Shown piece after piece: positions 9,148-42,463 of a stretch of 53,370 nucleotides of DNA (positions within the stretch are counted from its first letter, which is position 1; each line of letters begins with the position of its first letter). The notes beneath the pieces are model-generated. The model saw nothing but the letters and a program-made list of their open reading frames with translations. It had not been told where the DNA came from and ran no database searches. A program made the translations under genes and the position numbers. The DNA lies in assembly GCA_000320545.1 (NCBI GenBank), contig ADNK01001676.1, forward strand, positions 1-53,370. Reading direction: 5' to 3'. The stretch is from Bigelowiella natans CCMP2755. Taxonomy: Eukaryota > Protista > Cercozoa.

Positions 9148-9334
9148 TGCAACGTAGGTGGAGCGGCCCTGCTCTCTATGCTCGGTAAGACAAGTGTAAT
9201 AAAATTAAGTAAATTAATGAACTTCAGTTGTATCCCTATTGATCCTCATTCTAATTACACATTCAAACAAAATATTAGAATTATGCGTACCAGCGCTACC
9301 TTTTCAATATATTGAAAAATTGATCTATTTCTGC

Positions 9335-12846: not shown

Positions 12847-13879
12847 TGCAAAATGAATTTTAGTAATATTAAACATACCAAAGGCATTATTCAGACTGAA
12901 TAAGAGCATGCTGTTATGTCTTAAAGGAAAACAGTAAAATTCATTCCGATGATTCATCATTTGTAGCACATGAGGTCGATTTTAGAATCTCGAATTACGC
13001 ATCACCCACAGTGACCTGATGGCAAATTGAGCTGGATCATCTTTGAAAAATGGTCATTTCTCAGCCTTCAGAAGGTAGCAACATGCCATTTCTTTTCATG
13101 CCACACAATGCAATCGCGTGAAAGGGCAAACAACCACGCGAGCATGGCTAGGCTAGCTAGGCCTAGAGGCCAACCATCTCTGAACTCTGCGGACATTTTC
13201 ATTGCATGCAATTTCGAGTCGTGCTGCGGTTTGCGTCGCACTGGTTGCAACACGGCTCCAAACACGTGAACGTTTCAACACAGCACTTGCCGTCAGTTGA
13301 CACGATTGGCGGAGAAGACAGGAAAAGCCGCAGAAGGACAAAAGTGTGCACTCTAGCACTCGCGATGCATCCTGGCATCGTCTAGGTCGTGTTTGACAAC
13401 GGAGAGGAGCACTGGAGCAAACGGGTGCAACGAGTTTGGCGAACTCAAGTGAGAAGAACGGAGTTCACTCTCTCAATTTCTCAAATGGCGCTGACGTGTC
13501 AAACGACCAACACCACCATCACGTGCATCGTCAAGTTGGATGAGCCTTGTGATTGCGGAGAACACCAGAAAGAAAAGCTATTTTTGGCAAATCGTCTCAT
13601 TGGCATCGGAAACAAGAAAATGGAAGGAAATTGACTGTCGCAACTAACAAATCCCTTGTCATTCGGCGGCTTGAGACGCTGGAAAAGCATCATCAGAAAT
13701 GACATGACATCACAATCAGATTTCGTCAGACCGTCCAGTAAGTAGATTTGTCCGTTTGCCACTGCGAAGGCCACACATTGAAATGCATCCCCGCATCTTG
13801 TTGGAATTTCTCCGAGCGAACTTAGATCTGGTCATCAGTCTTCATTGCTCCCTTTGTACAATGTGCTTTTGTTCATGTT

Positions 13880-14215
13880 CAGATCCCGTAGAAGTGGGCT
13901 TTGCAAAGTTTGTGGTCGAGTTTTCTCATTCGGTGAGAAGAAATGATGAAAATTTCTTTCATGTGCTGTTGTTCAGCTGATGTTCAAAACTCAAAACCGA
14001 CACAGTTTCTAGGCTATAGAATCTGTGCTTTTGCAAACACTACTGTGAATCATGAAAATCCTTCGTTTACACTTGAAATTCATGTTCGTTGGAACAATCC
14101 TTCCCGATCTCTTGACGAAGCCCAGGATGCCTTCGAAAAATGGACAATAGATTCCAATCTAAAACATCAATCAGGAGCTTCTAATCTGAAAATTAAAAGC
14201 CTTTTGCATGCGTGA
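13880..14215 (+). pseudogene. Frameshifted copy A of the conserved orphan gene (paralog of 31521-32049)
   Basis: VEVGFAKFVVEF..ENF lies in one frame and GYRICAFANTT..PSF..RWNNP..FEKW..GASNLKIKSLLHA* in another. 34 of 70 ungapped positions are identical to copy B. Confidence 0.7.
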
Positions 14216-14898
14216 GCTTCCAATCTATCGATGGATGTGCATTCTGATTGTTCGTGACAACAAGTAATCAACAATGAAGTGTCACTTGTGCAACAGCTGT
14301 GGACATCCAGCATACTTTCCGTGGACACATGTAGACATGCATGTGTGCAATCACATTTAGACATGCCATGACTATGTGATGGATCTAGACAAGCAGCAAG
14401 AAGCTAGACATCTCCACACTCCAAGCATCTCTAACATCTCTAGATCTAGACATGATTGCTGGACTGTGGCTTTTGTGGAAATTCATGTTCAAATCCTGCT
14501 TCTCACTTGTCTAGCTAGGTGCAGGTGCGGAGATGCAAAAAATGCAAGCTTGGTGATGTGCGTGTCAGATGGAAGTCAATGTCTAAATGCATTGTACGTT
14601 CAATGGCTTTGCAAGCGAGGCGGTTCGCAAAGGGTTAGTAAAAGGTCAGCATGTCATCTACAACGCGATGCAAGGTTTATCGCAAATGTTAAAGCTATTT
14701 ACGATGTACGCTACGAAGAGCAACAACATCTAGAGCACATATGTCAAGCACCAATTGAGCGTACTGCTGTAATGCTGGCATTGCGCCATTTTCATGTGTC
14801 TTCAAAGCATACGTCGATTCAAGTTTTCTTTTACTTATGATGTCTAGAATTAGAGCAAATTCACATTAAATCCTTATCTTCACGGATCAAAATCGTCT

Positions 14899-14900
<2 letters not shown>

Positions 14901-14937
<37 letters not shown>

Positions 14938-14945
14938 TACATATA
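14901..14945. repeat. (TA)n microsatellite (representative of many (TA)n/(CA)n/(GA)n/(CTA)n/(CAT)n runs, mostly intronic)
   Basis: Seen directly. Confidence 0.9.
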
Positions 14946-15429
14946 AATATGTTACGACCGATAAATAGGATTAAAGACTTTTTACTCGATAATATCAAAT
15001 CGATGCCTAAATATTGAAGACAGGTCCAGATTTTTTCTTGATTTTAGAATTCTTGTTGTCACTTTTCATCCAAACACAATTCTGATATAGCTCTGAGCGG
15101 TATCGGGTCCTGCCCTAAATTATAAGGATTGCTTAATTTGTGTCATTTCAGGATAATGGCATTAATCGTGAAGCCTCTGATGTAAGTACTAAGATGATAA
15201 ATCTTAGTGTCCACCATCAAAGGGGTTGTCTTACATCACTTATATACTAGATCTTAAACTAAAGTGAAAATAATAGGATAGTTACCTTACGAGTATTATC
15301 ATAGGTTTTCAGCCACTTCCATTCGAATCGGCACCCTAATAATTACCCAATTTCTTATTAAGCGAAATTCAAATAAATAGTGTACATTTATGTTAGCAAA
15401 GAAATAAGCTTAATCATGAGTTACCCTTC

Positions 15430-15835
15430 TTACACTTGTCCTTGAAAGTGTTCTTTGGAAATTTGAAAGAGTTGAGGAACCTTTAAGGCGATGCAAAATG
15501 GTATCAATATACTGAAAACAGCTTTGGGATTCATTGGTGTGTTGATGAACGGAAAATATGCGCGTGAATGTATTTTTGTACAGAAAGATATTTCCAGCTG
15601 TCAAATAGAAAACTCGTTATTGTATTGACACACTTTGTTGAATGAATGTTCCCGTAAAGTCCTCCAGAGGTCAGGTCGAAGTAGGGGACAAACTCGCCCT
15701 TCCTGTAACTCTTTACAACACTGACAGGGTCTATCTTTTCGCCGTTGATCCGAAACTCCTGGTAACCTCCATGACCGTATTTTAATAACACCTAAGCGAG
15801 AGAGAGAGAGAGAGAGAGAAATATATACATGAGAA

Positions 15836-15879
<44 letters not shown>

Positions 15880-16510
15880 AGTACACAATCAATTAAGTTT
15901 AAGTGTCATGACAACCGTGATCGTATCATCTTCTGGAATATCCTCCCAATTGGCTGGTGGGACAGTATATCCGCACACTTTCGAAGGGGTGGAGAGCCTT
16001 CTGTCTTGCCTCTTTGTCCAAAACCATCCTAAACGACACACTCGATTAGATTGAGAATATCGCGAAAGAAATGCTATTTAAAATAAAAATTGGAGGGCAC
16101 AAGATCAACATTTAACTCACAAAAACATATAGTCTACAGCACACCTTTCTTCCATGCGTCTTCCAGGGTTGAAAACTTTGCCGACTTGCTGAATACGGGC
16201 CAAATTGCCTTCTCGAGGTTGGGATTCTTGAACGCCTTTTTCACCTGATTGTGGAAACGTTTGTACATTTTCGATCACCGGCCTATGACGAGAAGTATAT
16301 GAATTGCAAGGCACTGCCGTACACATGTCAAACTTCAAAGCGGATATGCATCCCTTCTAATTCCTTTAGGAAACATCGTATTTCTATTCGACAGGACGGG
16401 GTGGTATATTGTCTATTATCAAACCTTATTCACTTGGCTTTGTGTGTTGATTTGCCAAGGGGTGAAGAAATATGAGTCGCATTTCGGATTGAAGCTCCAT
16501 TTTCTGATTT
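15430..16510 (-). CDS. Multi-exon hypothetical protein (ends uncertain)
   Basis: Phase-compatible GT-AG exons: VKKAFKNPNLEKAIWPVFSKSAKFSTLEDAWKK|GWFWTKRQDRRLSTPSKVCGYTVPPANWEDIPEDDTIT|VLLKYGHGGYQEFRINGEKIDPVSVVKSYRKGEFVPYFDL. Confidence 0.55.
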
Positions 16511-16924
16511 TTACGTGTTGACACCATATCATCATATGCACACATCAATAGAGCCCTAATGGCTAATTGGACTATTTAGACCTTCTCAGCTAGTGAGATT
16601 GAAGCACAGAAGCGTGGCATGAAGGGAGGCGCTATATTTGCATATTAGACACATTTAGGCTTACGTGTTGTCTCGACACGTGTGCTTGAATGTAGCATAT
16701 GGTAGGTTCTTGTTCTGGACGCGTTTTACGACTAATCCATGAGCGTTTGCTTTGCGAAGCCATATTTCATCACCAAAGAATAGTCCGATGAGGAGAATAA
16801 GAAGATGCGACAGCTCTGAGTTTGTCATTAGGCCTATGCGGGAAACAACGAGGCCAAGTTTGATTTAGAAGATTGGAGGCAGGAGACGGAAGTACGTCAA
16901 AAATATACAAATGCGGTATATTCA

Positions 16925-16959
<35 letters not shown>

Positions 16960-17956
16960 CTTATATCCTTTTGAAATAACACTCTCCTCAGCCTCTACCT
17001 TGATGGGTGGAAGTAACAGCGGGGATGTATAGGTCGTGTGTGCGGTCTTGAGCCTTGCAGGCGAGGTTCCAGCTTACTCAACCGAATGCAATGCGTGGGA
17101 GTATGGATTCTGATTGCGCCAGAGACTATCTGCCCACGCAATCCTAACGTATACACTGGGACAACACGCGTGCGCCTACCCTCCTGTCATTCCGTTTAAT
17201 ATCCGCATGACTGCGAAGATCTCGTGACAGTACATGTACCTTGATGGCCTATGTGCCGTCCTGGCATGCAGCACACAACACCTCTCCGCGATGCCATGCT
17301 TATTGTAGAAACGTGCTGCAATTACCACATGATTCTTCCCAAGAAGGCGAAGCAGTAGCGAAATGCCCTTGCAGCAGCGCCTCTAAATCACCGGTCTGCG
17401 CTGAGCTGCAGACATGGAAACGTTGAGGGAATGCGTACGCAGCAGGAGACATCCCCTAGAAAGATCAAATCATGTATTGCCGCTAATTTTTCACCCAACT
17501 TCTTCAATTTCTTCTTGTCGCAGACGTTTTATGCAGTTAAAACTTGCCAGGAAAGAGCCAGCAGCAGGTTCTCCTATGAGCCTTTTCAGCAGCATTGTCC
17601 TCTCCAGAAAACTCTAAGAGCCACTGTCGTTGCACGAAATTTTATTCTTCGTCTTGTTGAGGAGGAAATTAGGCGAACAATATCGATAATGTATGTCGCG
17701 GGTCAAAAGTTCCCTCGATCTTGATCCCTTCTGGTTCCTACACCGGATTGTGATCTGTCTGTCAGGAAACGTATCTTGACAACACCAGCGGGCACAGTGT
17801 CATCGGTCACAATCCGTTGTTCTGAGCTCATTCATATGCGCGACATCAACCAAACCTTGTCGCCTGCAACGTTCACCCTGAAAGCGAATCCGCAAGTGAA
17901 GCGCGTGTCTGGCACACGTGCGGCGTTTCGGAAACAGGTGCGCGTGCACAAAACTA

Positions 17957-19249
17957 CGGAACACTTTCCAGGAGCTTTTTGCTGTTCCTTCCTTCTTCGG
18001 CCCCATCTAGCCATGCTGGCATGGTCGGCGAAAGCCAATCAACGACAGCCACTTTCTTTTCCACGTTGCACCATTCGTCGTGTGTCTGGATGCACGCATG
18101 ACCGCTGCTCCTTCCATTCGGCGCTTCCCGATCGTGCGGTGTGTGGAACAGCAACGAAGTTTGGATTTCACAACGTTCACGAGCGGGTCAAAATGAGTGT
18201 CTGGGCGTGACAGGTCAGGTCGTCGCACCTTCCAGCCTTGCTAGCTTGTCGAGGTGCGCAATCACCATCGTTGAGGTCACTGCGAAAAGTCCAGGAAGCG
18301 ACACCACAGGCCATCACGACGAGACGAGCAGGCCAGCAGGCCAGCAGGGTGCACGTCGCACTGATGAAGTTTGCACACTTGCCATTGCTTCTTCAAATCG
18401 CACTTCTGGACTTCCATGCTCTGCTTCAAAACACGCCTGGAGAGCTTTCCATCTTCGACTTTGTTGCCTCAGCTGGCCAGTGACAACGTCCAGCTTCCCG
18501 GTGAACGAGTGTCTTGGGGCACTCATCCCCATTGCTGATTTTTCGAGCAAAGTTGATCAATTCGTGCGCACCACTTGGCTTTCGCTGAATCGACTGCGGT
18601 CAAGTCTGTTCGACACGGTTTCGGACTGGCTGGCTGGCTCCAGGGCTTGCTGGAGTGCTCCAGCGCATCGAACAATCCTGCTGGCCTGGCGTGCTGTGCA
18701 CACATCCGCGGGGCCATGCAGTGCCAGAGTGTTCGTGCGCAATCACCTTGCGAGTTTCAGTTGATGGCATCACAAGTCTCAAAGCCGAACACTGAATTGA
18801 GTCAAGTCCCTTGTGTGCCTAGGTGCGTGCAATGCGCTTTCGTGCACCAGGCCAGCCAGCATCAGTGCCAAGTGTGTTGAAGTGCAACCGCCGCGTTTGT
18901 GCACTTGAATGCAATCAAACGCAGGCAACAGTGCATGCATGAGGTCTCAGAAAAAACACCAGTGATTTGATCATTGCAATGCCCAAACGATGCTGTCAAC
19001 ATGCAACACCATTCCCGCACTGATGATCCATCTGTGGGTGTGGGAAATGTGGGCCTTTGTTCGCTGCGCAGTTGATTCATGCACTGGCATCCATGCATCT
19101 CTAAATTTTGACATTTTCGTCCGTTTGCTTGTTTTCCGGTTTCCCAGATTTCTTTCGTTTGCCCTGCAACACACAGATCCAACGTGCATGTCAAACATGG
19201 CAAACATTGCACGTTGACAACATGGTGAAATCAGCATGTGCGGCATGTG
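17957..19249. other. TpA-erased (hypermutated) tract
   Basis: Only 4 TA dinucleotides in 1293 bp: three in CTAG and one that is the TRM1 stop codon. Confidence 0.9.
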
Positions 19250-20564
19250 TAAAACTTCACATCGTTAGTCGTTTACTTGATTCTGCAGCGACTTTTCCTT
19301 TTCCGTCATCGTTTTTCGCTTTCCTCCAGTTGCCCGCGACTAAAACAAAAATGTGTTGAATCCGCTGTCAACTTCCCCTTTTCTTACCAACAAATTTACA
19401 GCCTTGGAGAACCATTATGGAGTTCACAGTGTACATATGGTTTGGTGCATTCTTCACGTGATGTTTCTTGTGTCATGCAATACCTTTGGTCCCCAATTCT
19501 CCTCGGGATTAGGGAAAAATGCCTGGTGAAGCTACAAAATCCACACAAAAACATAGATTTATGTGCACACAAATGATATCTGTGTTGCGATGTAAGTAAA
19601 ATGCACACATACTGAAGCTTTTTCATACTATAAATTGTTCATCTCTAAGGTATGTAGCGGTTATTTTATTTTCGTTTGAGCTCTGCATACCCCTTCCGAC
19701 CCTTTCGCCTGCGAGAAGTTAACCTAGTTATGCGGACAAATAATATTATATTCTGTGTGTTCATATATCCCTAAAATAATGCACAATACAATACGTTATG
19801 ATATCATGTATATGTGAGAATGTGGGGCTATTTATATGTACAACACCTTTAATTCTGTGCCCGATTTTGTCGTGACTGCTATTATCTTTCCTGCTGCCGA
19901 GTCAGGACCTCGTTTAGCTTTGCCCTGAGCATAACGAGTTTTTAAAACTCAAACAATAAACAATTAACATTCGCAAGTTTGTCACCTGTTCTGGATCTCT
20001 AGCAACGATGGCCGCCATGATTTCCATGATGACCTTCATGTTTCATCATAACCATTTTAAATATATTTTCAATAAGATTTTCGTATACTATTATTTCATC
20101 ATTCCAAATGGAAATGCAGACGCATGTGCATTTCTTTCACAGAAAATTTGAAATATATTCGCGTGTGTGTTTTTGAGTGTTCTGAGCCATTATGTGCAGG
20201 AATTATTTTTTCACCCAATCCGAGAAAACGATCAAGTCATGTTACAGAAAATAAAAATATCTTTATCTCAGCAAAGATGAATGCATTACCATTGGAGATG
20301 CATCAGTCTTAATTGCAGATGGGTCGGCGTGCGATTGTGAAACGCTACAGAACACATAAGATATGAGGAAAACAACCAAACATTGCATACATGTGCAAGA
20401 ACAAATATAACCCGGAAGAGAGTAGTAACCAACAAATATGTTAGAAACTAGTACCGATATCCTGCATTGATTATCGCCGAACGCAGCTTAATGATATTCA
20501 CAGATGTGTGGAAGAGATGAGCAAGGCTTTTGTGCGTGTAATACCTGTTGATATCAGAAACAAT

Positions 20565-25428: not shown

Positions 25429-26916
25429 TTCCACGGATTCTACAAAATGAGTAATCGCAAGTAAACATTCGATCCCGAGAGGCGGGCGTGCGCGACAATG
25501 GCGGAAGTGCCTTTGGATGAAGTTTCCTTCTTCTCCTCTGACATGCTGGAGAACTTCTGCGTGAGCGTGCGCAGTTTACTCAGGCGTATTCTACTGATGT
25601 ACATGTATCAAATAACACAATATATACAGAGTGCAGTATTAGTATGAATGCCAGTGCGTTTGACCCCGAGGGCAAGAAGAAATGTACACATATAATGGGG
25701 ATTGATCATCACCCCCTCACCTTCCTGCATGTACCTGCTGTGAACTCCACGGATTCGAAGAGAGGACCTCCAAATAAAAAAGCCGTAGCGCATACACTAG
25801 GACGTTTACATTAAGGAAAGGAAATGGTTTTAGGATTGAATAAGAAGCAGGGAGGGACAAGAGAAATGATCCCCTGCCAACTCGCTGCGATATATAAACT
25901 TTTGCGATTTTTTAAACCCCACCGGCGAAGTATTTCTGTACACAACTAAAGCCCGCATGTATATATCCACCCCCATCTTTCCAAATGCTCTCTTGTGTAA
26001 AGCCTCATCCAATATATGAGGATTCTGAATTGGCAGCGGAGAGGGGTAGGATAGGCAGCTTACCTGGGGCAACGCGAAATGGTTAAAATTGTAGAAAATC
26101 TTTTTAGGTAAATTTACGTATAAATCTTTCCATTATTTTTTAGAAGTGTAAAATATTTTGGCCCTGTGTCACGAAAGAGTACAGATACTTTTCACGATGT
26201 TATCAGGGTAAACCTCGATCTAGGAAATTGAGTTCCTCGAAATTTCCTAGAAAAGTGTTTTATTCTATTCCGACAAGATAAATCTCGTGTCTTTCCACAA
26301 AAATACACCTCATATTTACTCATTTTCTTGCTCGCGGCGAGTTTCTGTATTCTCCGGATGAGAAATGCTAGAACGCCTAAGAATGTCAGAGATAATGTTG
26401 TAATATTTTCTGTCGTATAATAAAAATATACTACTTTTTGGGAACCGAAGAAATTAGAATGAGCATGCGGAAAGCGGGACTTCGGACAAGGAAGATGAAT
26501 TCCGTATGTTACTGTGAGAGAGACAATATACCATGGTAGTCTTAGTTTAAAATATCATGCCATTTCGAATATTTTACATCCTTTACGCGGTTAAATAATT
26601 TTTCGCGGAGTTTAGACATTCAGTCAGGAAAATTAAAATTTTCACCTTCAAACGTCTTTTGTTTATATATAACGACATCAATTTTAATGAATAATGATGA
26701 AAATATTAGTGGATTTACTTAAGATCTCTAGCTTTTTTATGACAATCACGTTCTGAACACAAATTTAATAAGGTTCGCCCCCTCCCAGCGCAGCGATGCG
26801 GCGATCGATTGATCACGGACAGGATCGTGTTGGGGCAGGCCGTGTGCCTCATTTTCGCGATTCCTTGTCCTATGGCAATTTTCTAACCACATATTTTCTG
26901 CTCCAGGTAGATCACC
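25429..26916. promoter_or_regulatory. Divergent (bidirectional) promoter region TRM1/EIF3I
   Basis: Head-to-head start codons with an AT-rich core. No specific sites are claimed. Confidence 0.5.
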
Positions 26917-27843
26917 ATGCCGACACGGCCGATCATCATGAAGGGGCACACCCGCCCCATCACGCAGGTGCTATATAACCACGATGGAGATCTCATCTTC
27001 TCGTGCTCCAAAGATAAAGTTGTCACGTGCTGGCGAAGCGATAGCGGGGAGCGTCTTGGTAGTGATAATACGATTAGTTTCGATATGCAGGAAAATTCAG
27101 CTGTAGGAAGAAGCTGCAGTTACATTTCCCCTTTCCCTTCCATTCTTCCCCTTACAATCTGCAACACACACATACATCGACATCGTAATATTGCGCTATC
27201 CTCATACCCACCTAATGCTACACAGGCACATATGAGCAGCACCGTGGTGCTGTGAACGCCATAGACGTCGATCGGTTGACGACAACAGTCGCATCGGCCG
27301 CTTCTGATAGCTACGTGAAGTTATGGGAGGCCCAAACGGGGCAAAAGAAAGGCGTTTTCAAAGTGGAATCCAGCGCGAGAGCGGTCAACTTCGCTCTCGG
27401 CGACAAGTTGCTTCTGGCAGCCCAGGATAAACAGTATGACCATCATTAAGCTAAGCCTCTTCGTTCCTTCCCTTCCTCATGCTGACCTCTCCCCCCTTCT
27501 CTTCCATTTCTTCGCCCTGCCTTTTTTAGAATGGGAAAGCAGCCCGCAGTCTTTATATACACAATTGGCAAAGATGAAGTTACAGACGGCGACTACAACG
27601 AGGACGGAAGCTTACGATCAAGCTTCGATGATGAAGCTAATCCAATGAAGTACTCCATTGCTAGGACTTATGTCGATGATGATGATGTTAATGATGTAAT
27701 CGTGTTTGCTTGTATGATCGTGCTTTTCATGATCGTTATGTTAATGTGCAACATTTGGTTAGATACACCGCCAAACTCGTCCACGAGGAGAAATCCAAAG
27801 TAAAATCTGAACTCCGCTTTCCCAACACCAATTTGCTCTTTCT

Positions 27844-27883
<40 letters not shown>

Positions 27884-28914
27884 TCACCCTCTTTCTTTCT
27901 GTGTGCGAGTGTGTGTAATTATCTATTAATCCACGTGAGAGAGTACATTTACGGCGTACGACAAGAGACCGCCGCAAAATATACAGTCGGAAGCATAAGT
28001 CGTTTGAGATCAACCTTCACGTTTGTCTTATGTCCTCCTATCGCACACTGATTTTGCTGTTTATCACAAAAATCAAATATATTAGATAAATTACGTGAAC
28101 ATTGTCTCCATAAATATCACTACTGCATCGACATGTACACGCGCCCGTGCGTCGTCGCACTCAACTAATGAAACTGTTTACCCGCAGATCAACATCGTGA
28201 GCGCGAAATGGTGCGATATGAACAAAACCATCGTCACTGCGCACGAGGACGGAATGGTGAGAAAGTGGGACGTGGAGACGCAAAAGGTACGTACCGATTC
28301 AACGTGTTGGGTAGTATCCTCCTCTCGTTAGATGGTGTATCTCCAGCGGATGGTGAATACAGTTTTCCCCTGAGCACTCTACCGCTGCTTGGGCAAAATC
28401 ATCAACTCGTTTGGTTTTGAAGTGAGAGTGGATGCAGTGCTGCTGTTGCTGCTGCCGCTGCTACTGTTGAAAATGGGCGAGTTTTGCGCTTTGCTATATA
28501 GAGTAATTATTGATCGCTGACACCTTGCACCGCGCCCCTCCCCTCCACCCACCCCCCGATGTTCAATGGTTAGATTCTGAAGGAAGTCCGGGCATGCGAA
28601 ACCCATATAAACTCAATGTCGTTCAGCAGAGACCAGACTATGCTTATAGCGGCCTCCCAGGTGGGGTGGACTGATTGCGTGTTTGTGTGATTCGCTGTGT
28701 GTGCAAACGGAGTGATGGGCAGGAGGGGGGGGGAGCGGGGGGGAGGGCCTAATAAGATTATGATATGATGTAGCATGTTATTGTAGAAATGAAGAAGTAT
28801 ATATATTGTGTGTGTGGGTGTGTGTGTGTGTACGTGTGTGTACATACATATATAAATTTATTTATTTCTAATGGAAATAGTTAAACGGTGCGGTTAGAGG
28901 CTCACGCACTCTCA

Positions 28915-28955
<41 letters not shown>

Positions 28956-28956
28956 C

Positions 28957-28997
<41 letters not shown>

Positions 28998-29950
28998 TAT
29001 GCCCTTACGTTTACAGGCCGACCAATGCGGAAAGTTAATCGATGCAAAGACTCTAAAAGTTCTCAAAACGTGAGTTGCGAGCGATAGCAGGCATGCAGCA
29101 TGTTTCTTATCCTCACTAGCCGCCCCTTAACACGCATCGGCCTTTTATGCAGCCCCCATCTCACATATGGCACTTGCACATTTAGGTACAAATCCAACCG
29201 TCCTATTAATGCTGCTGCAATATCACCAACATACAACCAAGTAAGTAGTCTGGCACTATGAAAGCTTTGAAGTATAAAGACCCAGTATGCGACAGGAGAA
29301 CCGCCATCTTGGCTCTTCGTCATAATAGCGACGTTGTATGTTTTCGCTTGAGAAGGGGAGGAGGGATGGGGAGGTTGAGCTGATTCATGAGTAGTCACTC
29401 ACTGCCAGCCATTTAGAAGGAACGGGGGAGGGATATGCCAGATATTCATTTCACAACTATTTTTGCATCGAAATTGGAGAAGAAGAAATAGCAGTAGAGG
29501 CAACAATCGTGATAATTTTTGCCCACAATTAGGTCCTAATTGGAGGCGGTATTCAAGCACGAGATGTTGCGCTGGTGGACTCGCGTATGTCGCACTTTGA
29601 AGTAGATTTTTGGCACATCTGTTATCAGGTCTGTTCTTCTACCATGATCCGTTTGTCATGATTTCCCTTTTGCTCAATTACATCGAATGACATCCCAAGC
29701 AAAGCCGATATGAGTCTGGTGCGCGCATAGATGGCCGTTATCTACAACATCGCTTTATTCTCGCATTGATCGCATGTCGAATTTAAATCAGTTCTACATG
29801 GGATCCGCTCGAGGGCACTTCGGTCCTGTGAATTCCATCGATATACATCCCAATGGAAAATCCTTTGTGAGCGGCGGAGAGGAGGGGGAGATCCGTCTGC
29901 ACCATATGGATAGCGTGTATGTCAAATCGAGCAACCAGATGGAACTTTAA
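26917..29950 (+). CDS. EIF3I: Translation initiation factor 3 subunit I (WD40), multi-exon
   Basis: [71 protein letters not shown] and [32 protein letters not shown] (TAA at 29948-29950). Confidence 0.95.
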
Positions 29951-30632
29951 ACGATTAGTAAGTTATGAAGGGTAGTTGTTTGTGTGTGAGGAAAATATGC
30001 TGCAGCAGATGTCAATGGCAGATGTTGTGATGCTTCATCATGGAAAATTTAGGCAGCAGTTTGTCGCAAATCAATGCAGCCTATCGTTGCGTCGTTGCAT
30101 TACGCAGCCACACATAACTAGATGAATGTGTGCATGTTTGGGTTGACTGGAGTGTTGCATTACGACATCGCGTCCGCGCGCACGACCTGCATCTCATTGC
30201 GCGTGGAAGGCGTCAACTTCATTCATTAGCTAGCGGCCTGTGAAGACACTCTAGCACTGCAATTCGTAGGCGGCACTAGTGCAAGTCCACACTTCATTCT
30301 GTAATTAGCTCACAGACGCGCTGCTCGCCAATGCTTGTTGTTGCACGCTGATGTAATCAAAGCTTTTGAAAACAAAACACTAAGCCCCTGATGATGAAGA
30401 CACATTGTGAGCTTGAGCATGCATGCTGAAACAAGCTCCCAAGAGGACATTGCCGCTCGCACGCGGGTCTTTTGACTTTTGCGCGCGCATTTCACTTTGC
30501 TGCAACTAGCTCAGTTGAACACATCACATCACGCCATTTTCAGATTGAAAAGGCAACATTTTCCCCCAACATTGCATTGTTTCGCTAACTTGTGCTGCAA
30601 AAGTTCCCTTTTGCAACACAGCATCTTCCATG

Positions 30633-30712
30633 TCGCACTGGCCCAAGCGGGGCCAAAATGCCAAACTCACTAACCACTTTCGCACTGGCCCAAGCGGGGC
30701 CAAAATGCCAAA
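30633..30712. repeat. Perfect 33-bp direct repeat, two copies with a 14-bp spacer
   Basis: TCGCACTGGCCCAAGCGGGGCCAAAATGCCAAA at 30633-30665 and 30680-30712. Confidence 0.9.
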
Positions 30713-31520
30713 TTTGCCAACTCATTTTGCCCCCCCAGCATGCATCCAACACACTGCTACCAAAACCAAACCAGAACAAAACTGCATCATGAATGCAAGC
30801 ACACGCTTGGTGGTCATGACCGACCACACATTCAGTGATCTAGCATGGCGGTGATCATGCGCTTCACAGACACACGCGACTTAGCGACGCTGTCTAGCTG
30901 TGTGTTCGAGCGGCGCTCTGGGCATCCTGCATGCATGCCCATTGACTCTCTAGTGTTGCTAGATTGTGGGGCCCATCAGCTAGCTAGCCTGCATGAATCA
31001 ATCTAGCAATTGGTGTCAAGCGCATGCATTCTAGCATTCACTAGTTCAGCACGCGATGAGCACAAGCATGCCAGATCGAATTCCCATGCTAGCATGATGT
31101 GAGCTAGCTAGCTAGAGAGTCCATGAGCTACGCTAGCTAGAACACCAGAACGAGATTCTAGTTGGTCAAGCACAACAAAATGACATTTGACCTAGCTAGC
31201 TAGAGAACGACATGGATGGCTTGCTTAACCATGCACGTGGAATCGAACAAGTCAGAGTTGACGTGCTAGCGTGTGTGAACAAAGTGAGAATCGAAATCGA
31301 CTAGTCGAGGGAGTGTGCCCAGTCATCACTAGATTTGCCAGACATCTCTAGTAGCTAGATCTGAACAATGCTAGAATGGGAGTGATGATGTGACACGGAT
31401 GCACACCTGGCCATGAAAAGAAAAAAAAAGATGCATCCCTATTGTAGGTTTTGATCTCTGAGTCCCGACAGGTTCCCAATCATTGCGGACAGGAACGTGA
31501 GACCATTGTAGTCTAGATAG

Positions 31521-32049
31521 TTATGCGTACAAAAGACTTTTGATAGCAAGTTTAGATGCCCCTACTTGACCCTGAAGATTGTACTTTTCGATCCACTTCT
31601 CAAAGGTGTTTTGTGCCACATCGAGATTCAATTCTGGATTTGACCACCTAATTTGAAGTTGAACTTTAAAACTGGGCTGATGACTCTCCGTAGTAGTGTC
31701 TGCAAAACCAGTAACTCTGAATCCCATAAGCCTATTCACTAGATCAGAAGAAATTTTTTTCCGCATTGTTTCTACAACAGCTTTGAAATTTTCTTTTGAC
31801 AGTTTTCTCTGATAAAAACAAATAAAAGTATCAGAATGGATTCAACTCCGAGATTTTTTGTGTGATGTTAACCTCGAAAAACATCTCGATCACGAATTTC
31901 ACGAAGTCCACCTCCAAGGTTTCAGTGTTATCGACGTTGCTCTTGCCTTGTTCCTGAGCATGCACCTCTTTTCGATCATTTATGTCCTCCTCAGCAAATC
32001 TTGGCTCCGAGATTCCAAACACTTTTGTAAAGATGATATTAGTGAACAA
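31521..32049 (-). CDS. Conserved orphan protein, copy B; intron 31809-31872
   Basis: A 64-nt GT..AG intron joins LEVDFVKFVIEMFFE to RKLSKENFKAVVETMRKKISSDLVNRLMGFRVTGFAD..IKSLLYA* in frame. The 5' end is uncertain. Confidence 0.65.
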
Positions 32050-32251
32050 ACTATATCATCTCATCCCAAACATTCGCAGAATACTTAAGTATTTGGGAAC
32101 TTGATTACAAATATTGGATTACTGATTCGACTTCTATACTAGTTCACATGATATATCATCCCATCCAAATATGCATAGTATATCGAAGTTTTTAGGGACT
32201 TGAATACATACGTTAGACGTTAGAGTACTGATTCGACTTCTATACTAGTTC
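32046..32251. repeat. Diverged tandem duplication of about 100-106 bp
   Basis: The identical 26-mer TACTGATTCGACTTCTATACTAGTTC occurs at 32120-32145 and 32226-32251, with similar upstream flanks. Confidence 0.8.
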
Positions 32252-32298
32252 TTATACGATCTAATAGCCAATAGTATGATCCATCTACAAAGTATAAC

Positions 32299-33273
32299 TC
32301 AATATTTTTTACCAGAGAGGAACAGTAGTAGAATGATAGTCAACTGAGAATTGAGAACTTTAGTCAATTCACTCCCAAAGGTGATATTCGAGCATTCTTC
32401 CAGAGTACTGTCGTTTGAGTATCCCAACCCAAGTAAGGTTTCTACCAAAGATGATTCCGGGAAGTATCCAGGGACACAGAGTAGCAGTAACTCCGGTAAG
32501 ACAACCAGTGTAGCAGTCACTATGAATAACAGATTGCTCTCTAAACAACTAAACTTGTGACGGAACTTAGTTCTAATTGGCGGGAAACTTTTCCCTTGGT
32601 CGTGCTGATGGCTCCAAATTAGTAGGAGCATTAGCAAGATGGCATCGATGAACAGAATGGCGGTTTCAGTTTTAGTTACAATGTCGGGGAGAATCTCCTT
32701 CACGAGTAAGTCACTATAGATCATTGGTAAGGCAGAGAGGGAGAAACGTAAGCTGTATAAAGGTCCTAGATATCTAAAAATAATGGACTTTTCCATGCAC
32801 CACTTGTAGAGCAGCATCATAGATATTCCAAGGGACACCCAATTATGCGAGAGGAAATTGACTAGTATACTTGGAACCTGAGCACCAAGACGGATTACTC
32901 CTGCTATAAGTGCTGCGAGGCTAATCCAAAAGTACGAAAAATTGTTTTGTTTTGAAGAGTCATATGATGAGGGTTTCCACATATTCATGCCAACATAGCT
33001 TTCACAGAGTAGGCGTCCAATGTGTAAAGACTCCATAGCCACTGGGGAAAGGTTCCAGGTCTTTATAAGTTCCAAAGATGATGTAATTAGGTAGTAAGCT
33101 GCAACGACGAAAACCATGGACTGGGACCAATTTTCGCGAAGTTTGACATACAGTGCCAGGAGTGCCCGGACGATGAGTGTTTTGAAAATTGCAATGAGCA
33201 GCAGTTCAATCGACATGCCAACTCTGCAGCCGCTAGTGTTGAAGAGCATGGAGTAAATCTTGGCTACAGCCAC
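32299..33273 (-). CDS. Multi-pass membrane protein, divergent ERD2/KDEL-receptor-like N-terminal part plus two extra TMs
   Basis: 324-aa ORF with many hydrophobic segments. The motif series KIY..SGC.VGMS, SYDSSKQNNF, IIFRYLGPLYSLR, ILFID, QGKSFP parallels ERD2 (KIW..SCAGIS, TYD..DTF, ITTHYLFFLGLYR, FYCD, KGKK.LP). Confidence 0.5.
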   Translation of the reverse strand: MAVAKIYSMLFNTSGCRVGMSIELLLIAIFKTLIVRALLALYVKLRENWSQSMVFVVAAYYLITSSLELIKTWNLSPVAMESLHIGRLLCESYVGMNMWKPSSYDSSKQNNFSYFWISLAALIAGVIRLGAQVPSILVNFLSHNWVSLGISMMLLYKWCMEKSIIFRYLGPLYSLRFSLSALPMIYSDLLVKEILPDIVTKTETAILFIDAILLMLLLIWSHQHDQGKSFPPIRTKFRHKFSCLESNLLFIVTATLVVLPELLLLCVPGYFPESSLVETLLGLGYSNDSTLEECSNITFGSELTKVLNSQLTIILLLFLSGKKY

Positions 33274-34609
33274 AATTTTCAGGATCGCAGTGGGTGCTGT
33301 CGATCTGTCGATTCGGTCACGACTGTGATGTATCGCAACAGAGCAGAATGAGAAATGAGGCTTCCAGATGCCGTGAGCCCTGAGTTCGTGATCTAGGTTG
33401 AAACATTGAATTGACTGTAGAAAGCCGACTTAGGCCATGTCGTTTCTGGAAAACGTCTTCGACTTGCCGAAGCTATCAATCGTTTGTAAAGTCGTCTTGA
33501 ATGCTTTGAGGCAGGCGTCATCCAGAGGACAGTCAAGGAGTCCGCGCCAAGAGTCCACTGTGCAAACAGAATCGTGTATGAAGAGTCCGACACAGAATCG
33601 ATTGAGCAGGCAACCATCTTCAATCGTCAACACTATTTGGGAATTACAATGATAAATTGGCCTTTTATTGATGGCTCTGACAACATCGTACCGCACTGGA
33701 GTCCACAATGAAGAATGAAAAAAAGCATTGATGAATGAACACTATCAAATTTCATATTACGACATACATCTGATTCTGATTATGGAGAAGAAATCGCGCA
33801 TCACCATGCAACCAGAGCCGCCATGCAACCAGAGCACCCATGTGCTGCTACTTTTCTGTCACTGTCAAACTTGTCGAGCTCTACGTTCACTGTCAAAACA
33901 TTGCGCTTCACAACCGTCTTCACATCCAACTTGAGGCAATTTAAAGCATTTTTGGTAGATCTAATCCGTAAGCGGCGGGAGCCTCCACAAGATTTGGTAC
34001 TGAACACGTACAGTGTAGCTGGACTGAATTCATTCTTTCACGAATTCTTTATCCTTCACAATCCCTCAAGCAAGGACGTTTTGCAGTACTACAAAGGTTT
34101 GCACGGACTCCGTTCTTGGAGACCAGTGCTCCAAGAAATACGAGGCGTCAATTTGTGCAGTAATTGTTCTAAACCGCATGTAAATGGTGGCTACGACAAA
34201 GAACAAATCAAAAATTATCTGCAGCTCTTGTACATCCCATGGACTCCAATCGCACCAAAAGTATTCAGATAGCTGCAAAGCAGCAATCTTGGAAAAATTG
34301 GAAATCTTGCTCGAAATCCTAATAAATCTCAAAATTTTGGCATGCATTCTCTCTTTTTGCGGAAAAATCCAGGAAGTTTACGAAATTTTCAAGATATTTC
34401 TGAAGCGTGACGTGCTAAAATTGTCAGTCTTTTCTCATCATTAATGAGAGCGCTTGTGCAAGATGAATCTTCGCTTCTTCACCTTTGAAAGCTATTTTAC
34501 CTTCCGCCAATGCTGGAGACTGATGATGACAACCTGACCTTTGTGTCTGAGGGACCTAGCATCAGCAGCTACCTCAACATGGAGACTAGGTCGTTGAAAC
34601 TGACATCGC

Positions 34610-34822
34610 ATGCCAATGTGCGCGCGCAACTTACTGCGTGGAATGTCAAAATCGATTAGGTTTGCCAATAGCGATTCCATGAACATCCATGGTCTCCAAG
34701 TTGAAATTCTTCGCCAAAAGAATCACATCAAAGAGTTGAAGAGCGAAATCTCTAGATTGCGTTCAACATCCACAACAAACATGGTGATGAATACCTTCAT
34801 AGTGGTATTTAGATGTGGTTAG
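34610..34822 (+). CDS. Small coiled-coil protein fragment (cluster B)
   Basis: LQVEILRQKNHIKELKSEISRLRS; lies directly upstream of BED copy B, as 9335-9658 does in copy A. Confidence 0.35.
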   Translation: MPMCARNLLRGMSKSIRFANSDSMNIHGLQVEILRQKNHIKELKSEISRLRSTSTTNMVMNTFIVVFRCG

Positions 34823-35308
34823 ACTGCCAAACTATTACTCTATCACCACCATGCCATCGAACAAAATGTCTTATCATCATAGACAGCTTAAATCATACAG
34901 ATTCAGTTTGTGCACTAGTGCTCAAAACACAATTCATTCTTCTTTTTGACGTACACTTGTGTGGTTGTGTGTCTCAGGCCAACGGGAAGGTATGCCATTC
35001 ATCAAAGTCAGAAGAAACTTGCATTCATTCGTACACCTTTTCAATAGATCGACCAAATCTCGCAATCATTACTGAAGGCTTGGGTCGAGAAGATACTTTT
35101 AAGCATTAGCTGTGAAAAGGATAAAGAAAAAGAAATTGTACAATAATAACAAATGTTTTTGCAACATCCCGGTTATTTGTTTTTTTGGCTTCAGAAAGCA
35201 AAGTGCGATTTATGGAATTATAAAAAGGGTACCCTAAAAATCAAGTAACGCAGCTATTCGATAATGTGTTTGTTTGTTTAAAGGCATCAAAATGACACTG
35301 ACTATCTG

Positions 35309-36010
35309 ATGGATATTTGGAGGGAAAATGTTGATGATAATCTACAGTTTGTAAAATGCGAACGATGTGGGAAACGAATAAAAATAATCAAAATACGTTC
35401 TCCAGGGAGAGCAAGTCAGGATAGAGAAAATATGATGAAGCATCTCTTGCTGTCATGCATCAAACTAAATGAAAAACAGAAACTATTGATCAAGGGCCTA
35501 ATGAGAGATGGGATGAAGGATGAGGGGGTTATTCAACGTCTGGAATTGAAAGAACTGCAAGATGCTTTCTTGATAATGGAAAACAATATGAAGCGCCAAT
35601 TTCCTTTGTTTGAAAATGCTGTGAAGGAGTATGCCAACAATATCAACAACAACAAACACAGTTCAGCGATACGGATTGAACTTTTGGGTATCAATAAGCG
35701 ATCTATTATTAGACAAATTTCACAATTTTCAGTGAGGGAATCTCAAAGGCAGATCACTAATACTCAAAATAGCGGAACCGATCGAAAGGATATCAACTCA
35801 AATTGGGCAGCTGGTCCCTCTACTACAAAACGTAAACGTCACATTGAGTACCAAAAAGTGCCTCCTAATATTTTGCTCACTGACTGCAATGATAAAAAAG
35901 CTAGCTTCACATCAAAAGATTTTAGCAACGGTTATGAAGAGGGATTGCTTAGTCCTACATGTGCTAGCCTAAAATATGATTCCAGCGCGTTCACCTTTGA
36001 AGACGAATAA
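35309..36010 (+). CDS. BED-type zinc-finger protein, copy B
   Basis: MDIWR..VKCERC..KIRSPGR..ENMMKHLLLSC. Shares DAF, NM, QFP and ELLGI blocks with 8194-9147. Confidence 0.7.
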   Translation: MDIWRENVDDNLQFVKCERCGKRIKIIKIRSPGRASQDRENMMKHLLLSCIKLNEKQKLLIKGLMRDGMKDEGVIQRLELKELQDAFLIMENNMKRQFPLFENAVKEYANNINNNKHSSAIRIELLGINKRSIIRQISQFSVRESQRQITNTQNSGTDRKDINSNWAAGPSTTKRKRHIEYQKVPPNILLTDCNDKKASFTSKDFSNGYEEGLLSPTCASLKYDSSAFTFEDE

Positions 36011-37027
36011 AATATGGGCGACATTAGACATTGCCGAAATGCTTGGAAGCCATTTTGGAGATTTAGTTACTTGCTGTTTCGCAAAAGCAATTAAGTTTTG
36101 AGGACTTTCTGTCAAGGATTCCTCTATCCATACAAAGTTCTATGAAGTTTATATTTCTCAGTCATAGTTTTTCATGCAGATGGACCTATGTACGAAAATA
36201 GAAACATAAAGGAATGTTACACGTAAAAGTATCAGCAACATGAGCTAAAGGCACAGACATGATTTGAACACTTGTCACTGAAAATCATCCTCGCCTATTG
36301 GCACAGCTAAAATATTTTCTCGTCGCAACAAAGATGAACCAATGCCAGCAGAGCAGCCACTTTGGTGCGCATTGTTGTGTAGTGTTCTAGTCTAGTAGTG
36401 TCGACTGATCTAGATAATCATTTCATTCATGTCGAGTCATTTGCACATCTCGTGTTCACATCAGAGACTCACATCACTGCTAGACTATTCTGACGCAGAT
36501 GCGATGGCATGTTGCCGGCTATGGTCACATGCAAGCGCTCATTTTGTCCAATGACACACGCTCATGTTTTTTTAGATTTTACTGGATTAATGAACTTCAC
36601 ATGTTCTAGATGTTGCATGCTTTCTTGGCACTGAAGTGCTACAGGATTGATCCCTACATTATAGTCTAGATAGTTTAATTTCTGATATGTACTTTTATGC
36701 ATACTTGCTTCATTCGTTTTCATTCATTGTTAATCAAATTGCACATATCTAGAGCAGCTTCGTACTTTAACACAGAAGAGCCGAACAAATTCCATTATCT
36801 TCCGCTCACGTACAAAGATTTTCAGTTTTTAAGAGAGAGAGAGAGCGAGAGAGAGAGAGAGAGAGATTTGGATTTGGCAGGCCTAGTATCAATCTGCTAC
36901 TTCAACAGCTGCTAGCCTCGGTGTTATATTGACGCTCTTCAAGATTGCGTATGCTATGAATACAAGCTCTTGACTCGTTTCGTTTCCGATAAAAGTGCTG
37001 CTGCAAGTCAAATTTCTTCTGAATCGC

Positions 37028-38965: not shown

Positions 38966-40120
38966 ATGCATGCCAAGAGCCCCCCCCCCCGGCTACGCGC
39001 TATCTTATTCGCCTTTCATTCTGTCATCACCCTTGCAAATCAGCCTCATAGATACGCACCAGCTAAAAGACCTGGGCTAGCGCCGCGGCTACTTCGCACA
39101 CTCGCACATCATCAAGGAACCAAGTCGAGTCGAGTGAGGATATCTAAATTTGCAGATCATCCCCAGTTTAAATTGAACGCACTCCGAGCTGAGTCGCGGC
39201 CAACACACTCATCTGTACGGTGCTATGAAGGCGGGCAAAGCAGTCCTTCAATACGCGGGCTCTCGGATGTAGGGGCAATGGACGCCGGGAACGAATTTTC
39301 AGATAGAATTAGAACCTACAAGGTGTGGGGACCGCCCGCAGTTATTCTCGCAGGGTTTTCCCCACCGGAAGCTTCTATGGTTAAGGAGATACTTTGCGCG
39401 GTCGGGTCGGACTTTGTTCCGGTCATTTTAGTCGATGGCGAGCAGCTGTACCGCCCTGTTGCTGAGGTAGTAACCCTCCCCGAGCCGGAATGGCTGCTGC
39501 AGCCTTGGGCCTACAACCCAGAAAGCAAGCTGGGCAATGTGTGGGGCAGCGATCACGTGATCTTGTTCTCTGGCATTCCTATTCAAGAGCAGGCGACCCT
39601 GCTCGACGTGCTGGAATCGTGCCCGATGATGCCGATGCCAAGGATGTTCCCCGCGCTCGCGACGATGCATAACCAGAACGAGCCCGTGGGGAGCGTCATG
39701 GCGGAGGCAATCGAGCTCTATCGCCAGCAGCTCGACTTGAAAAAGGCGCCAGAAAAGTCTGTGTGGAGAGAGGACACCAAGCCGCCATCCCCGGTGCCAG
39801 TAGCAGACCCCGCGGTTGGCCTCGCCCCTCCCTCAAAGCCGAAAGAATTCACGCTGCCGTCGGAAGAGGAGATGGAAGCTGCCTGTGCAGAGTTTCTGTC
39901 TACAAATCTGCGCGAGCAGGTTGACGAGATATATCGCGGCTTGGAAAACGACGATATCTCCGTGCTGGAGGGACGCCGCGCAGCAATGACAGAGGAGGAG
40001 AAGCTTCGGTTGCGGAAGCTGATGGACGAGGAGGATAGGAGGAGGGAAGGGCAGCAACAACAAAGCAACACTGCTAGTGATGAGCCCGTAGATGATAATA
40101 ATGATAATGTTATCAAATAA
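38966..40120 (+). CDS. Plastid-targeted DUF3783-family protein, intronless
   Basis: Signal-plus-transit N-terminus, then WGPPAVILAGF..FVPVI..VILFSGI..FPALAT..N.N.PV..E, which resembles the plant/green-algal DUF3783 proteins. Acidic/charged tail. Confidence 0.7.
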   Translation: MHAKSPPPRLRAILFAFHSVITLANQPHRYAPAKRPGLAPRLLRTLAHHQGTKSSRVRISKFADHPQFKLNALRAESRPTHSSVRCYEGGQSSPSIRGLSDVGAMDAGNEFSDRIRTYKVWGPPAVILAGFSPPEASMVKEILCAVGSDFVPVILVDGEQLYRPVAEVVTLPEPEWLLQPWAYNPESKLGNVWGSDHVILFSGIPIQEQATLLDVLESCPMMPMPRMFPALATMHNQNEPVGSVMAEAIELYRQQLDLKKAPEKSVWREDTKPPSPVPVADPAVGLAPPSKPKEFTLPSEEEMEAACAEFLSTNLREQVDEIYRGLENDDISVLEGRRAAMTEEEKLRLRKLMDEEDRRREGQQQQSNTASDEPVDDNNDNVIK

Positions 40121-41197
40121 GTCCGATAATTAAGCGCGTGCTCTTGCCTTGCATCTTCCTCTTTTTGCACGGGTACAGTAACTATGAAAGAAATGATGAA
40201 AATGCTTCTCAATGCTCAAAGTAGCTAGGGCAGTGAGGCGAAATGTAGATAAATCGGCAAAATTTAATCATGTTATGTATAAGTCTTTTCTAGTGTTAGA
40301 ATACATCTAATTATGATAAATATAATAATACCCCACATTATTGTTACACATGCACGATCGATCATCACATCGCTGCTCGAAGCTTGCGTCTATAGCTGAC
40401 TTGCACGTGGCACACATTTATTACCAATGTATCCTGCACGCATGATGTATATGTGAAGTCGCTGTGCTTAATTTTTTCGCATTTTCTCACACCATCGATG
40501 AAACCTATCAACCTAACGCATTTAGCATCGTCACGTGATTTACACAACATGCATTTTAGAAAGCTCTTTAATATTGGGCTACAGTAGTTCGGCTAGATTT
40601 CTGTCGATAAATCGAACTGCTTATGTACGCATGGACACTAGCACAGCTAGACAGCACCACATCCCTCACAATTTCATTAAGCTGCATAGAAGCGCCGCTG
40701 CAATGCTAGAATGCACAACACGTTCTTCTTTCGGGTTGCCTGCTGAATGATAATTAGCGCGCAGCACGTATTTGTGCAGTTTGTTAGTCAATATGACATA
40801 TTTAGATGCAGCTAAAGTGCCTATACTAATAAGTGAGTCACATGCAGACTGTTACACATCATGTCTATGATCGCACATATGGCGGCCTATGCTAGTATGT
40901 GGTAAATCGTAGATTACTAGCATAGATGATTATCTAGATCACGTAATGAATGTAGCAGCGTCAGCTGCGAGCAGCACGCCGTGTGCACGTACGAATTGCA
41001 TTCTGGTAACAACATTGTCCATTGTAGCCTCGAATCTATAGCATATGAATTCTGCGAAGAAAATCCATGGCCACCGCCGCATGCATCATGCTTGCTTGCG
41101 CCCACAACAACGCCACGACATACGAAGTGTAACTGTAGGCAATATTATCATGCCGTGCTAGCATGATCGGCCGCATGCACAGCGTAGCCGCCACTCT

Positions 41198-42463
41198 CTA
41201 GCCTGCCCCCCCATGGAGATTCGAGATGAAGTCTCTCGTTGCAGCACCGTGACGACCATAACGAGAGCGCCTGGCGGGGTTCCTCGTTGTGGTCGCTCCA
41301 GCTGACGATGACGATAGCGCAGAGGGCATGACTCCTGTAACAGGTATTCGAGATCTTCCTCGCCCAACCAAACGGCCTCCTGATATGCAACCACACATAA
41401 GCGTGCATTCTCCTAGGAACCTAGCGCGCGCGGGCTGCTTTCTACTGCTACTTCAATGCAAAGGGCATCGTTTGTACGATCTGCAAAAGCACGGAAAGTA
41501 ATCGGTTCCTTAGGCTCTCCCATCGGGTACCGTTAGGTTGCAATCGGAAAAGCAGTAAAAGGGAAAAATGCAAAGAGACGGATTTTGGCCCCGGCGCCAA
41601 GGAGTGGGCGGTTCTGCGAGAATCGTCGATGCCTCCATGCTTCATCATTGGTCTTTTGGAGGAGGGGAAAGAAGAATGTCTATCTGCAAATCAATGTGAA
41701 ACTTACTTAATCCAGGATGGCGGGCTATAGAAGGCCTGAAGCTTCCTCCCCGAACAGCCTTGAACCGCGCCCCATGCTGCCAGCTGCGCGACCTTTGCCT
41801 TTGGTAGACCTGCCTCTCACGGAGCGTTGCTGATAAGCGAATATGTGAGCCCTGAGGTGTGTGTGCTCGCTTCTCCCTCCCTCCCTCCCCTCCCCCCCCC
41901 CTCTCTGTGTGTATGTTTGTGAATTTTTGGATATGCTTCGGACACGGTACCTGCCGATTCAGCGATGCAGATTTCAGATCTCTCCCCCACCTAATTTTCG
42001 ATAATTCTCAAGGTTATGAAGCATATGGTTCCAAACCTCTTCTCTCCGTATCATCTATCAGGGTGCTATATGGCCATCTACCGCATCGAAGACCCCGAGG
42101 ACGACGACCTAGGAAGCAAACGCTCTAGTCAGTCACATTGAGTAACATGGAATACTACTCAACTTGTAATGAACAACAATAGCTGCAGGGAGAGGAGGGT
42201 GGCCTCGCACTACTACTCGGAAAAGGACGTGTACACACGTTATTACCAAGCCGAATGACGCTCCAGTTCAGTCTCTAAAATACCTGTTTACAGCATCACA
42301 TCATTGGCACGATATATGCGCACACTTACCGCTCAAAAAAACGGTGCGCATTTTGCTAATCGACGTGCTGCTATTTTGCCCTTGATGACAGGGCAACGAG
42401 CAGTTTCAGAAGATAGTAATATGAACTCTCTTCTTACACCAACTATCTCTCTATCTCCCTCTC

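Follow-up and report, generated by a model that had tools for sequence, protein, structure and literature searches.

Why should a stretch of nuclear DNA that has lost almost every other TA dinucleotide keep those that lie within CTAG? The question is raised by a tract in contig ADNK01001676.1 of Bigelowiella natans CCMP2755, analyzed here over 53,370 nucleotides (the whole stretch of DNA studied, hereafter the window). That a TpA mutator exists in this organism, as the original prediction presupposed, is established by the mutation-accumulation work of Mettrop et al. (10.64898/2026.01.13.699255), in which mutation runs a thousandfold faster in two integrated viral regions and is nearly always TpA to TpG or CpA. 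According to the same preprint, every A-to-G or T-to-C change in the hypermutable regions falls on TpA; it also counts 124 TpA-poor clusters in the genome and proposes an ADAT2-like deaminase, with Bn78255 as a candidate from sequence and a model only. Its main text does not contain the terms CTAG, trinucleotide, tetranucleotide, flanking, or context; the supplementary mutation table may carry flanks. Literature searches on Bigelowiella with CTAG found no report, and searches on TpA depletion and hypermutation in algae found nothing beyond this preprint.

The feature that prompts the question is the following:

30781 to 31430, unstranded: focal TA-eroded tract, in which CTAG accounts for 25 of 29 TA; its depth is near single-copy, and the stretch between about 30830 and 31455 is single-copy

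The four remaining TA are one each of TTAG, CTAC, GTAG, and TTAA, exactly as originally counted. When positions 30781-31430 were shuffled 5000 times with dinucleotides preserved, 2.6 +/- 1.5 CTAG were obtained, with a maximum of 9, and the runner-up 650-base windows across all 53,370 nt likewise hold 9 CTAG at most. Among ordinary sites, meaning those with neither C before nor G after the dinucleotide, just 1 of 113 has survived. The tract is no assembly artefact, since contigs from three public DNA runs, which represent at most two samples, match positions 30802-31484 without a differing letter. No ongoing mutation was seen across 30802-31484 in those three runs, and none is listed across 12900-19400 in two DNA runs; few TA targets remain in either stretch. 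The feature is real, and the hypermutation process that probably underlies it is already known.

Eroded DNA across the window was delimited with a two-state model that sees TA versus TG/CA only and is blind to flanks, which yielded six tracts totaling 6.5 kb; all counts below come from these tracts in this single window. They are listed here, together with a seventh stretch named in the original prediction:

913 to 1406, unstranded: eroded tract with 3 CTAG, 4 half-sites (C before or G after TA), and 6 other TA
7429 to 8322, unstranded: eroded tract with 6 CTAG, 4 half-sites, and 3 others, downstream of orphan ORF 8194-9204 (minus strand)
13000 to 14581, unstranded: eroded tract with 13 CTAG, 16 half-sites, and 5 others, spanning introns, exons, and the 3′ end of a paralogous gene
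17741 to 19249, unstranded: deepest eroded tract, single-copy, with 7 TA in 1.5 kb (3 CTAG, 2 half-sites, 2 others)
29998 to 31435, unstranded: tract of the two-state model that holds the focal tract
33100 to 33632, unstranded: weakly eroded tract with 2 CTAG, 4 half-sites, and 5 others
36240 to 36660, unstranded: partly eroded tract with 5 CTAG and 10 half-sites, uncalled by the blind segmentation

Pooled, the six tracts have a TA observed/expected ratio (O/E) of 0.30 and a TG and CA O/E of 1.58, and they pass the B. natans hypermutation cut-offs (TpA rho <=0.43; CpA+TpG >=1.52). The focal tract by itself misses the TpA cut-off of 0.43 only through its CTAG, which keep its TA O/E at about 0.7.

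The original prediction ranked survival as CTAG above half-sites above other TA, and this order is what the six blind tracts display. Survival was taken as the TA share of TA+TG+CA+CG for each flank pair, with the window's own DNA as background and stand-in for the ancestor. Of 129 C..G sites in the tracts, 57 still carry TA; for half-sites the figure is 42 of 471 and for the others 27 of 1097. The background shares are 30% at C..G sites, 27% at half-sites, and 25% at the rest. Half-sites outlast other TA in six of six tracts (Mantel-Haenszel odds ratio 3.9, p 3e-8), the same ratio being 1.01 in 28 kb of background, and CTAG in turn outlasts half-sites (odds ratio 9.8). If CTAG is counted in the segmentation, the two CTAG-rich tracts are lost, and there are still 18 half-sites versus 11 others (p 0.006, composition-adjusted). 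In the partly eroded stretches singled out beforehand, the non-CTAG survivors are mostly half-sites, as had been stated: 5 of 7 in 14220-14580, 4 of 4 in 30360-30780, and 10 of 14 in 36240-36660.

Some qualifications attach to these counts. The surviving TA at 13076 and 13739 are the GT splice donors of the paralogous gene, so selection retains some TA; both were omitted from the survival shares and relative-rate fits and kept in the other counts. Fixed-window binning by CA/TG alone was tried and set aside: eroded and intact DNA fall together in such windows, which diluted the signal (raw O/E 0.46 for half-sites versus 0.41 for others). Grouping by ordinary-site survival selects on one of the classes compared and is excluded from the evidence. 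Downstream of genes at 2950-4700 and 40100-41500, there is TG/CA gain with 7-8 CTAG per 650 bases and many TA left; both are probably partly eroded DNA, and the tests are conservative because they were counted as background.

How the grading arises can be approached through relative decay rates. When each tract is given a single exposure, the decay rate relative to ordinary sites is 0.51 for half-sites and 0.08 for CTAG. An additive model with one rate per strand, fitted without CTAG, assigns flank rates of 1.67 to A, 0.99 to G, 0.82 to T, and -0.05 (about 0) to C, so that ATA/TAT is the fastest-hit context among ordinary sites. These four rates beat both a single rate (p 2e-8) and a contrast of C against the rest (p 0.002). 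A model in which YTAR survives fitted worse, with a negative log-likelihood of 26.9 versus 23.9 for C against the rest and 17.6 for four rates.

An enzyme blocked outright by C at -2, or alternatively by G at +1, was the mechanism first put forward; half-sites would then be lost by one route only and CTAG never. The half-site rate of 0.51 and a CTAG rate near 0 are exactly what such a block predicts, and the fitted C rate of about 0 also favors it. The two versions are inseparable by survival, and trinucleotide product ratios (CTG 1.21, TGG 1.31, others 1.33-1.47) do not separate them either; the products of whole half-sites do. Written as C-TA-H, half-sites lack 85 TA, with CG unchanged, and both products are in excess: C-TG-H by +35 (95% 15-56), an edit made despite C at -2, and C-CA-H by +49 (95% 29-70), an edit of the other strand made despite G at +1. 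Neither flank stops the edit outright. Since the G-at-+1 route is the commoner, C at -2 appears to be the stronger obstacle.

Both routes can also be followed among relatives of a repeat that adjoins the focal tract:

30300 to 30830, unstranded: dispersed multi-copy repeat, TA-eroded, whose other copies show TA retained, TG, or CA

Its summed contig depth is about 830-920 versus 15 in unique DNA (run X13), a depth that does not equal copy number, and up to 17 contigs support a variant. The evidence from it is qualitative, since the copies are related by descent, depth does not number mutation events, and 40 of 95 variant rows are listed. Paired T/C and A/G variants at TA sites between copies correspond to TA to TG and TA to CA, as in the known process. 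For example, the CTAA at 30381 appears in three runs as CCAA in 38-48% and CTGA in 21-36% of depth, that at 30586 as CCAA in 24-34% and CTGA in 17-43%, and that at 30427 as CCAA in 80-98%, whereas ordinary sites keep TA in 0% (30401) and 3-4% (30723). CTGA or its mirror occurs at four sites where relatives still have TA (30306, 30381, 30586, and 30767), and CCAA at all six CTAA sites among the 40 of 95 rows listed. This pattern runs against a strict single-flank block, and although background A-to-G in an early repeat copy could yield some of these changes, we consider such a block improbable. The one CTAG in the repeat, at 30506, has no variant among the same 40 rows. The motif of the repeat has no match in viral contigs, and its degenerate form has none in metagenome contigs.

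Other differences among the copies lie outside TpA. At seven transitions (30348, 30384, 30399, 30563, 30621, 30730, and 30489), at least 79% of other-copy depth differs from the window's copy, which has G or C in six of the seven, among the 40 of 95 variant rows listed. This direction is opposite to the AT bias of the genome and may point to a weak A-to-G activity outside TpA. The repeat also contains a tandem duplication at 30633-30726 (47 bases), of which the other copies have a shorter form; further duplications occur at 8261-8558 (about 147 bases) and 32036-32251 (about 100).

If half-sites decay by both routes, the next matter is how completely CTAG is spared. Full protection, as originally claimed, is not borne out: the pooled relative rate of 0.08 has a profile of about 0 to 0.21, and the deepest tract by itself gives 0.37. 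CTAG survival is 0.81 in the focal tract and 0.08 in the deepest, where CTAG stands at 3 of 36 C..G sites, below background (p 0.002), and still outlasts other TA (3/36 versus 4/370, p 0.018). The presumed products are in excess there as well, with a CTGG/CCAG O/E of 2.26, whereas a simulated old tract with full protection gives low CTAG but no CTGG excess. The deepest tract also contains a run of three CTGG at 18626-18640 and a run of three CCAG at 18847-18860 that resemble eroded CTAG runs, each apparently altered on one strand as by a processive enzyme; this DNA is single-copy. CTAG is the slowest context, at about 0.1 of the ordinary rate and at most about 0.2, which does not imply immunity.

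In the focal tract, just 6 CTGG/CCAG accompany the 25 CTAG, so that the relative CTAG rate is <=0.07 (95% 0.16) on the assumption that all six derive from CTAG. Independent flank effects would give a rate of 0.25 and 27 CTGG/CCAG. This shortfall of 6 against 27, even though half-sites decay both ways, speaks for a separate shield, such as a modified base on each strand or a protein sitting on the palindrome, acting on top of a real graded context. Variation in CTAG survival from tract to tract would likewise suit a regional mark, and N6-methyladenine reportedly resists deamination by TadA, which is the basis of eTAM-seq. Yet outside the two CTAG-rich tracts the additive per-strand model, fitted without CTAG, predicts 24.8 CTAG and 26 are seen, with no extra term. 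Furthermore, the known eukaryotic 6mA writer marks ApT and not TAG (PMC12695648, the available text of which does not name chlorarachniophytes), and the available text on giant viruses of B. natans names no CTAG motif (10.1101/2025.11.19.688996). The original prediction had offered a methyl mark or a binding protein at CTAG as its alternative. A shield at CTAG only cannot by itself account for the intermediate survival of half-sites (odds ratio 3.9), and the four flank rates differ, so that the equal mutability of all non-CTAG TA which a CTAG-specific methylation shield needs is not found; an additional shield is compatible with the data, though on balance we think it unlikely.

The reading that we prefer, with a probability of roughly 0.55, is that TA is lost save at CTAG because the hypermutator is slowed by C before or G after TA and nearly stopped by both. 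The mutator would be the proposed adenine deaminase, converting TA to TG/CA with a graded flank preference of its own. Half-sites would decay at about half the ordinary rate via either strand, while CTAG, presenting both slowing flanks on both strands, would decay at about a tenth of it and, in the focal tract, more slowly than the product of two single-flank effects. We infer that the grading reflects the enzyme's own preference for sequence or DNA shape. Such an intrinsic route to CTAG sparing is plausible by analogy, because TadA editors have flank preferences and CTAG is polymorphic and rarely mutated.

The local over-abundance of CTAG, also part of the original prediction, was found, with an O/E of 9.9, but protection does not account for it. 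Simulations that combined the preprint's background spectrum with a TpA mutator and were run to equilibrium, once for each of five settings, gave a CTAG O/E of 0.21-0.57, namely 0.2-0.5 with full protection and 0.57 with fivefold extra C-to-T at CWG. Protection keeps only CTAG that already exist, and the tenfold excess therefore needs a separate origin. One conceivable source is a mutational sink, in which CTAG would be made from CCAG/CTGG by C-to-T, or from CTAA/TTAG by off-target A-to-G, and could then not be removed. The focal pools have the shape that a sink would leave, with small half-site pools (10, 11, and 14) and a C..G pool of 31 against 8, 11, and 13 in the other palindromic pools, a difference of about threefold, and the six G/C-ward differences in the window's copy of the repeat, from the 40 of 95 variant rows listed, point the same way. 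Nonetheless, the simulated values never come near 10, and the preprint places all A-to-G and T-to-C changes of hypermutable regions on TpA. Because CCAG/CTGG (O/E 1.25) and AA (1.12 versus 1.06) are not depleted, a sink is unlikely, and we give it very little credence.

Inheritance with slippage is the simplest account. Six of the 25 focal CTAG stand as additional units in tandem (AGCT)n runs and may have arisen after the erosion. A contig from elsewhere in the genome, reached through a loose end behind 14454, carries CTAG-rich DNA with its other TA intact, and the paralogous gene likewise has a CTAG-rich 3′ end. It is likely that the focal unit was already CTAG-rich, low-complexity 3′ DNA, enlarged by (AGCT)n slippage, and that erosion merely unmasked the excess. 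Readings of the cluster as a tandem array, a hairpin, or a Helitron end were rejected, as there is just one 22-base direct repeat and the spacing is irregular.

The genomic setting bears on both the origin of the CTAG and the reach of the mutator. The dispersed repeat lies on one side of the focal tract and the last exon of a minus-strand orphan gene on the other, and the relevant features are:

31258 to 31520, minus strand: 3′ UTR of this neighboring gene, from RNA reads, overlapping the focal tract and holding 6 of its 25 CTAG
31521 to 31841, minus strand: last coding stretch of the orphan gene, paralogous to 13949-14212 (plus strand) at 46% of aligned residues
12965 to 14215, plus strand: paralogue, spliced, transcribed, and single-copy, with introns and exons strongly TA-eroded

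In one RNA run (X22), minus-strand first mates cover 31105-31586 at a depth of 16-18, and five reads with a poly-T loose end before 31258 place poly(A) addition near that position. The GT..AG joints of the paralogue at 13072-13282 and 13737-13883 are present in two RNA-type contig sets, and 12900-19400 is single-copy with one variant row. The DNA is nuclear B. natans DNA with spliced genes, and ORF 2212-2937 is 100% identical to Bigna1 aug1.39_g12141. A many-intron gene at 26911-29930 (plus strand), transcribed at its 3′ end, stops just before the tract. Judged by its peptide, this gene may encode the translation factor eIF3i.

Searches for relatives were largely uninformative. The orphan gene at 31521-31841 has no relative at the level of Pfam, PHROG, or longer proteins; no viral locus was found for its last exon; and six-frame translation of 17741-19249 gave no Pfam match. 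One metagenome locus matches the last exon weakly, at 41% over 41 residues, with 55% GC and 2 CTAG, and was taken as chance. The neighboring ORFs have no informative Pfam, PHROG, atlas, or viral-contig match, and neither viral nor transposon homology was found for them; this evidence is weak. Erosion here is not confined to recognizable viral DNA.

The window also contains two inverted, old clusters of paralogous orphan genes, at 7429-14900 and 30000-36900, each bordered at its two outer 3′ ends by DNA that is TA-eroded and rich in CTAG. Orphan paralogues 8194-9204 and 35282-36010 share 37.5% over 160 residues, 13949-14212 pairs with 31524-31841 at 46%, an 11-base word with CTAG recurs at 31510 and 36663, the two ends of one gene cluster, and 31455-31500 is a short dispersed repeat.

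Selection could conceivably have kept and multiplied CTAG as a functional motif in the 3′ UTR or terminator DNA of this gene family. CTAG clusters do lie 3′ of both paralogous genes (14220-14581 and 30830-31430) and of ORF 35282-36010, six CTAG fall within the transcribed 3′ UTR, and neutral substitution cannot reach an O/E of 10. Against this, CTAG spacing is irregular, and CTAG outlasts other TA in tracts without an excess, as in 17741-19249. Selection would also leave half-site survival without a reason, so that it may explain the excess and not the hierarchy; as an account of the whole pattern, it is very doubtful.

A bolder version of the preferred reading can be offered, tentatively, as possible. 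The mutator would be a natural DNA adenine editor with an AND-gate immunity: it would edit TA if either flank is permissive, and only the palindrome CTAG would halt it, by way of a symmetric read-out of the duplex or a host mark. Its reach would extend past integrated viruses to the introns, exons, and 3′ UTRs of single-copy, transcribed, host-like genes that neighbor dispersed repeats, thereby reshaping expressed genes in which CTAG would be the only lasting TA word.

Whichever enzyme is responsible, a four-base signature in which ATA/TAT is hit fastest, half-sites are halved, and CTAG is nearly spared provides a test for any candidate and can be checked directly against the published B. natans mutation list. 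Counting non-CTAG TA maps old targets more sensitively and catches tracts missed by a plain TpA cut-off, and the signature could guide searches for this process in other lineages. B. natans has the only described TpA-to-TpG genome defense, and a flank fingerprint would help to identify its enzyme. In the literature searched, no description was found of a context rule spanning four bases, of half-sites decaying by two routes, or of erosion that extends into transcribed genes present in single copy.

Fungal RIP provides one point of comparison. Its chemistry is C to T, which creates TpA; in the B. natans tracts, TA falls while CA and TG rise, the opposite chemistry, and two of these tracts are single-copy at 80% likeness. 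The two processes are alike in being regional, dinucleotide-specific hypermutation that erodes mobile DNA, a comparison drawn in the preprint (10.64898/2026.01.13.699255). TadA-derived base editors offer another. They perform A-to-G on DNA with activity highest after T, higher with C after, and lower with A after (PMC8989541); they are engineered, T is preferred and not required, and the available account names neither CTAG immunity nor an effect at -2. By contrast, the B. natans tracts erode fastest where T is at +1 (or A at -2) and slowest where G at +1 coincides with C at -2. A physical route to protection without a mark is offered by a report that CTAG is a structurally polymorphic tetramer and that cancer and SNP data show it to be rarely mutated (PMC6511876), although that work, in the part available, concerns how mutable human, yeast, and E. 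coli DNA is in general, CTAG being scarce there, and involves no deaminase. Finally, the closest known system is the hypermutation of NCLDV and virophage DNA in B. natans itself, which shares the organism, the change of TA to TG/CA, and the clustered loss of TpA with gain of CpA/TpG. Unlike the targets described by Mettrop et al., the tracts here, for which no viral homology was found, are short and extend over single-copy DNA in the introns, exons, and 3′ UTRs of orphan genes that are transcribed.
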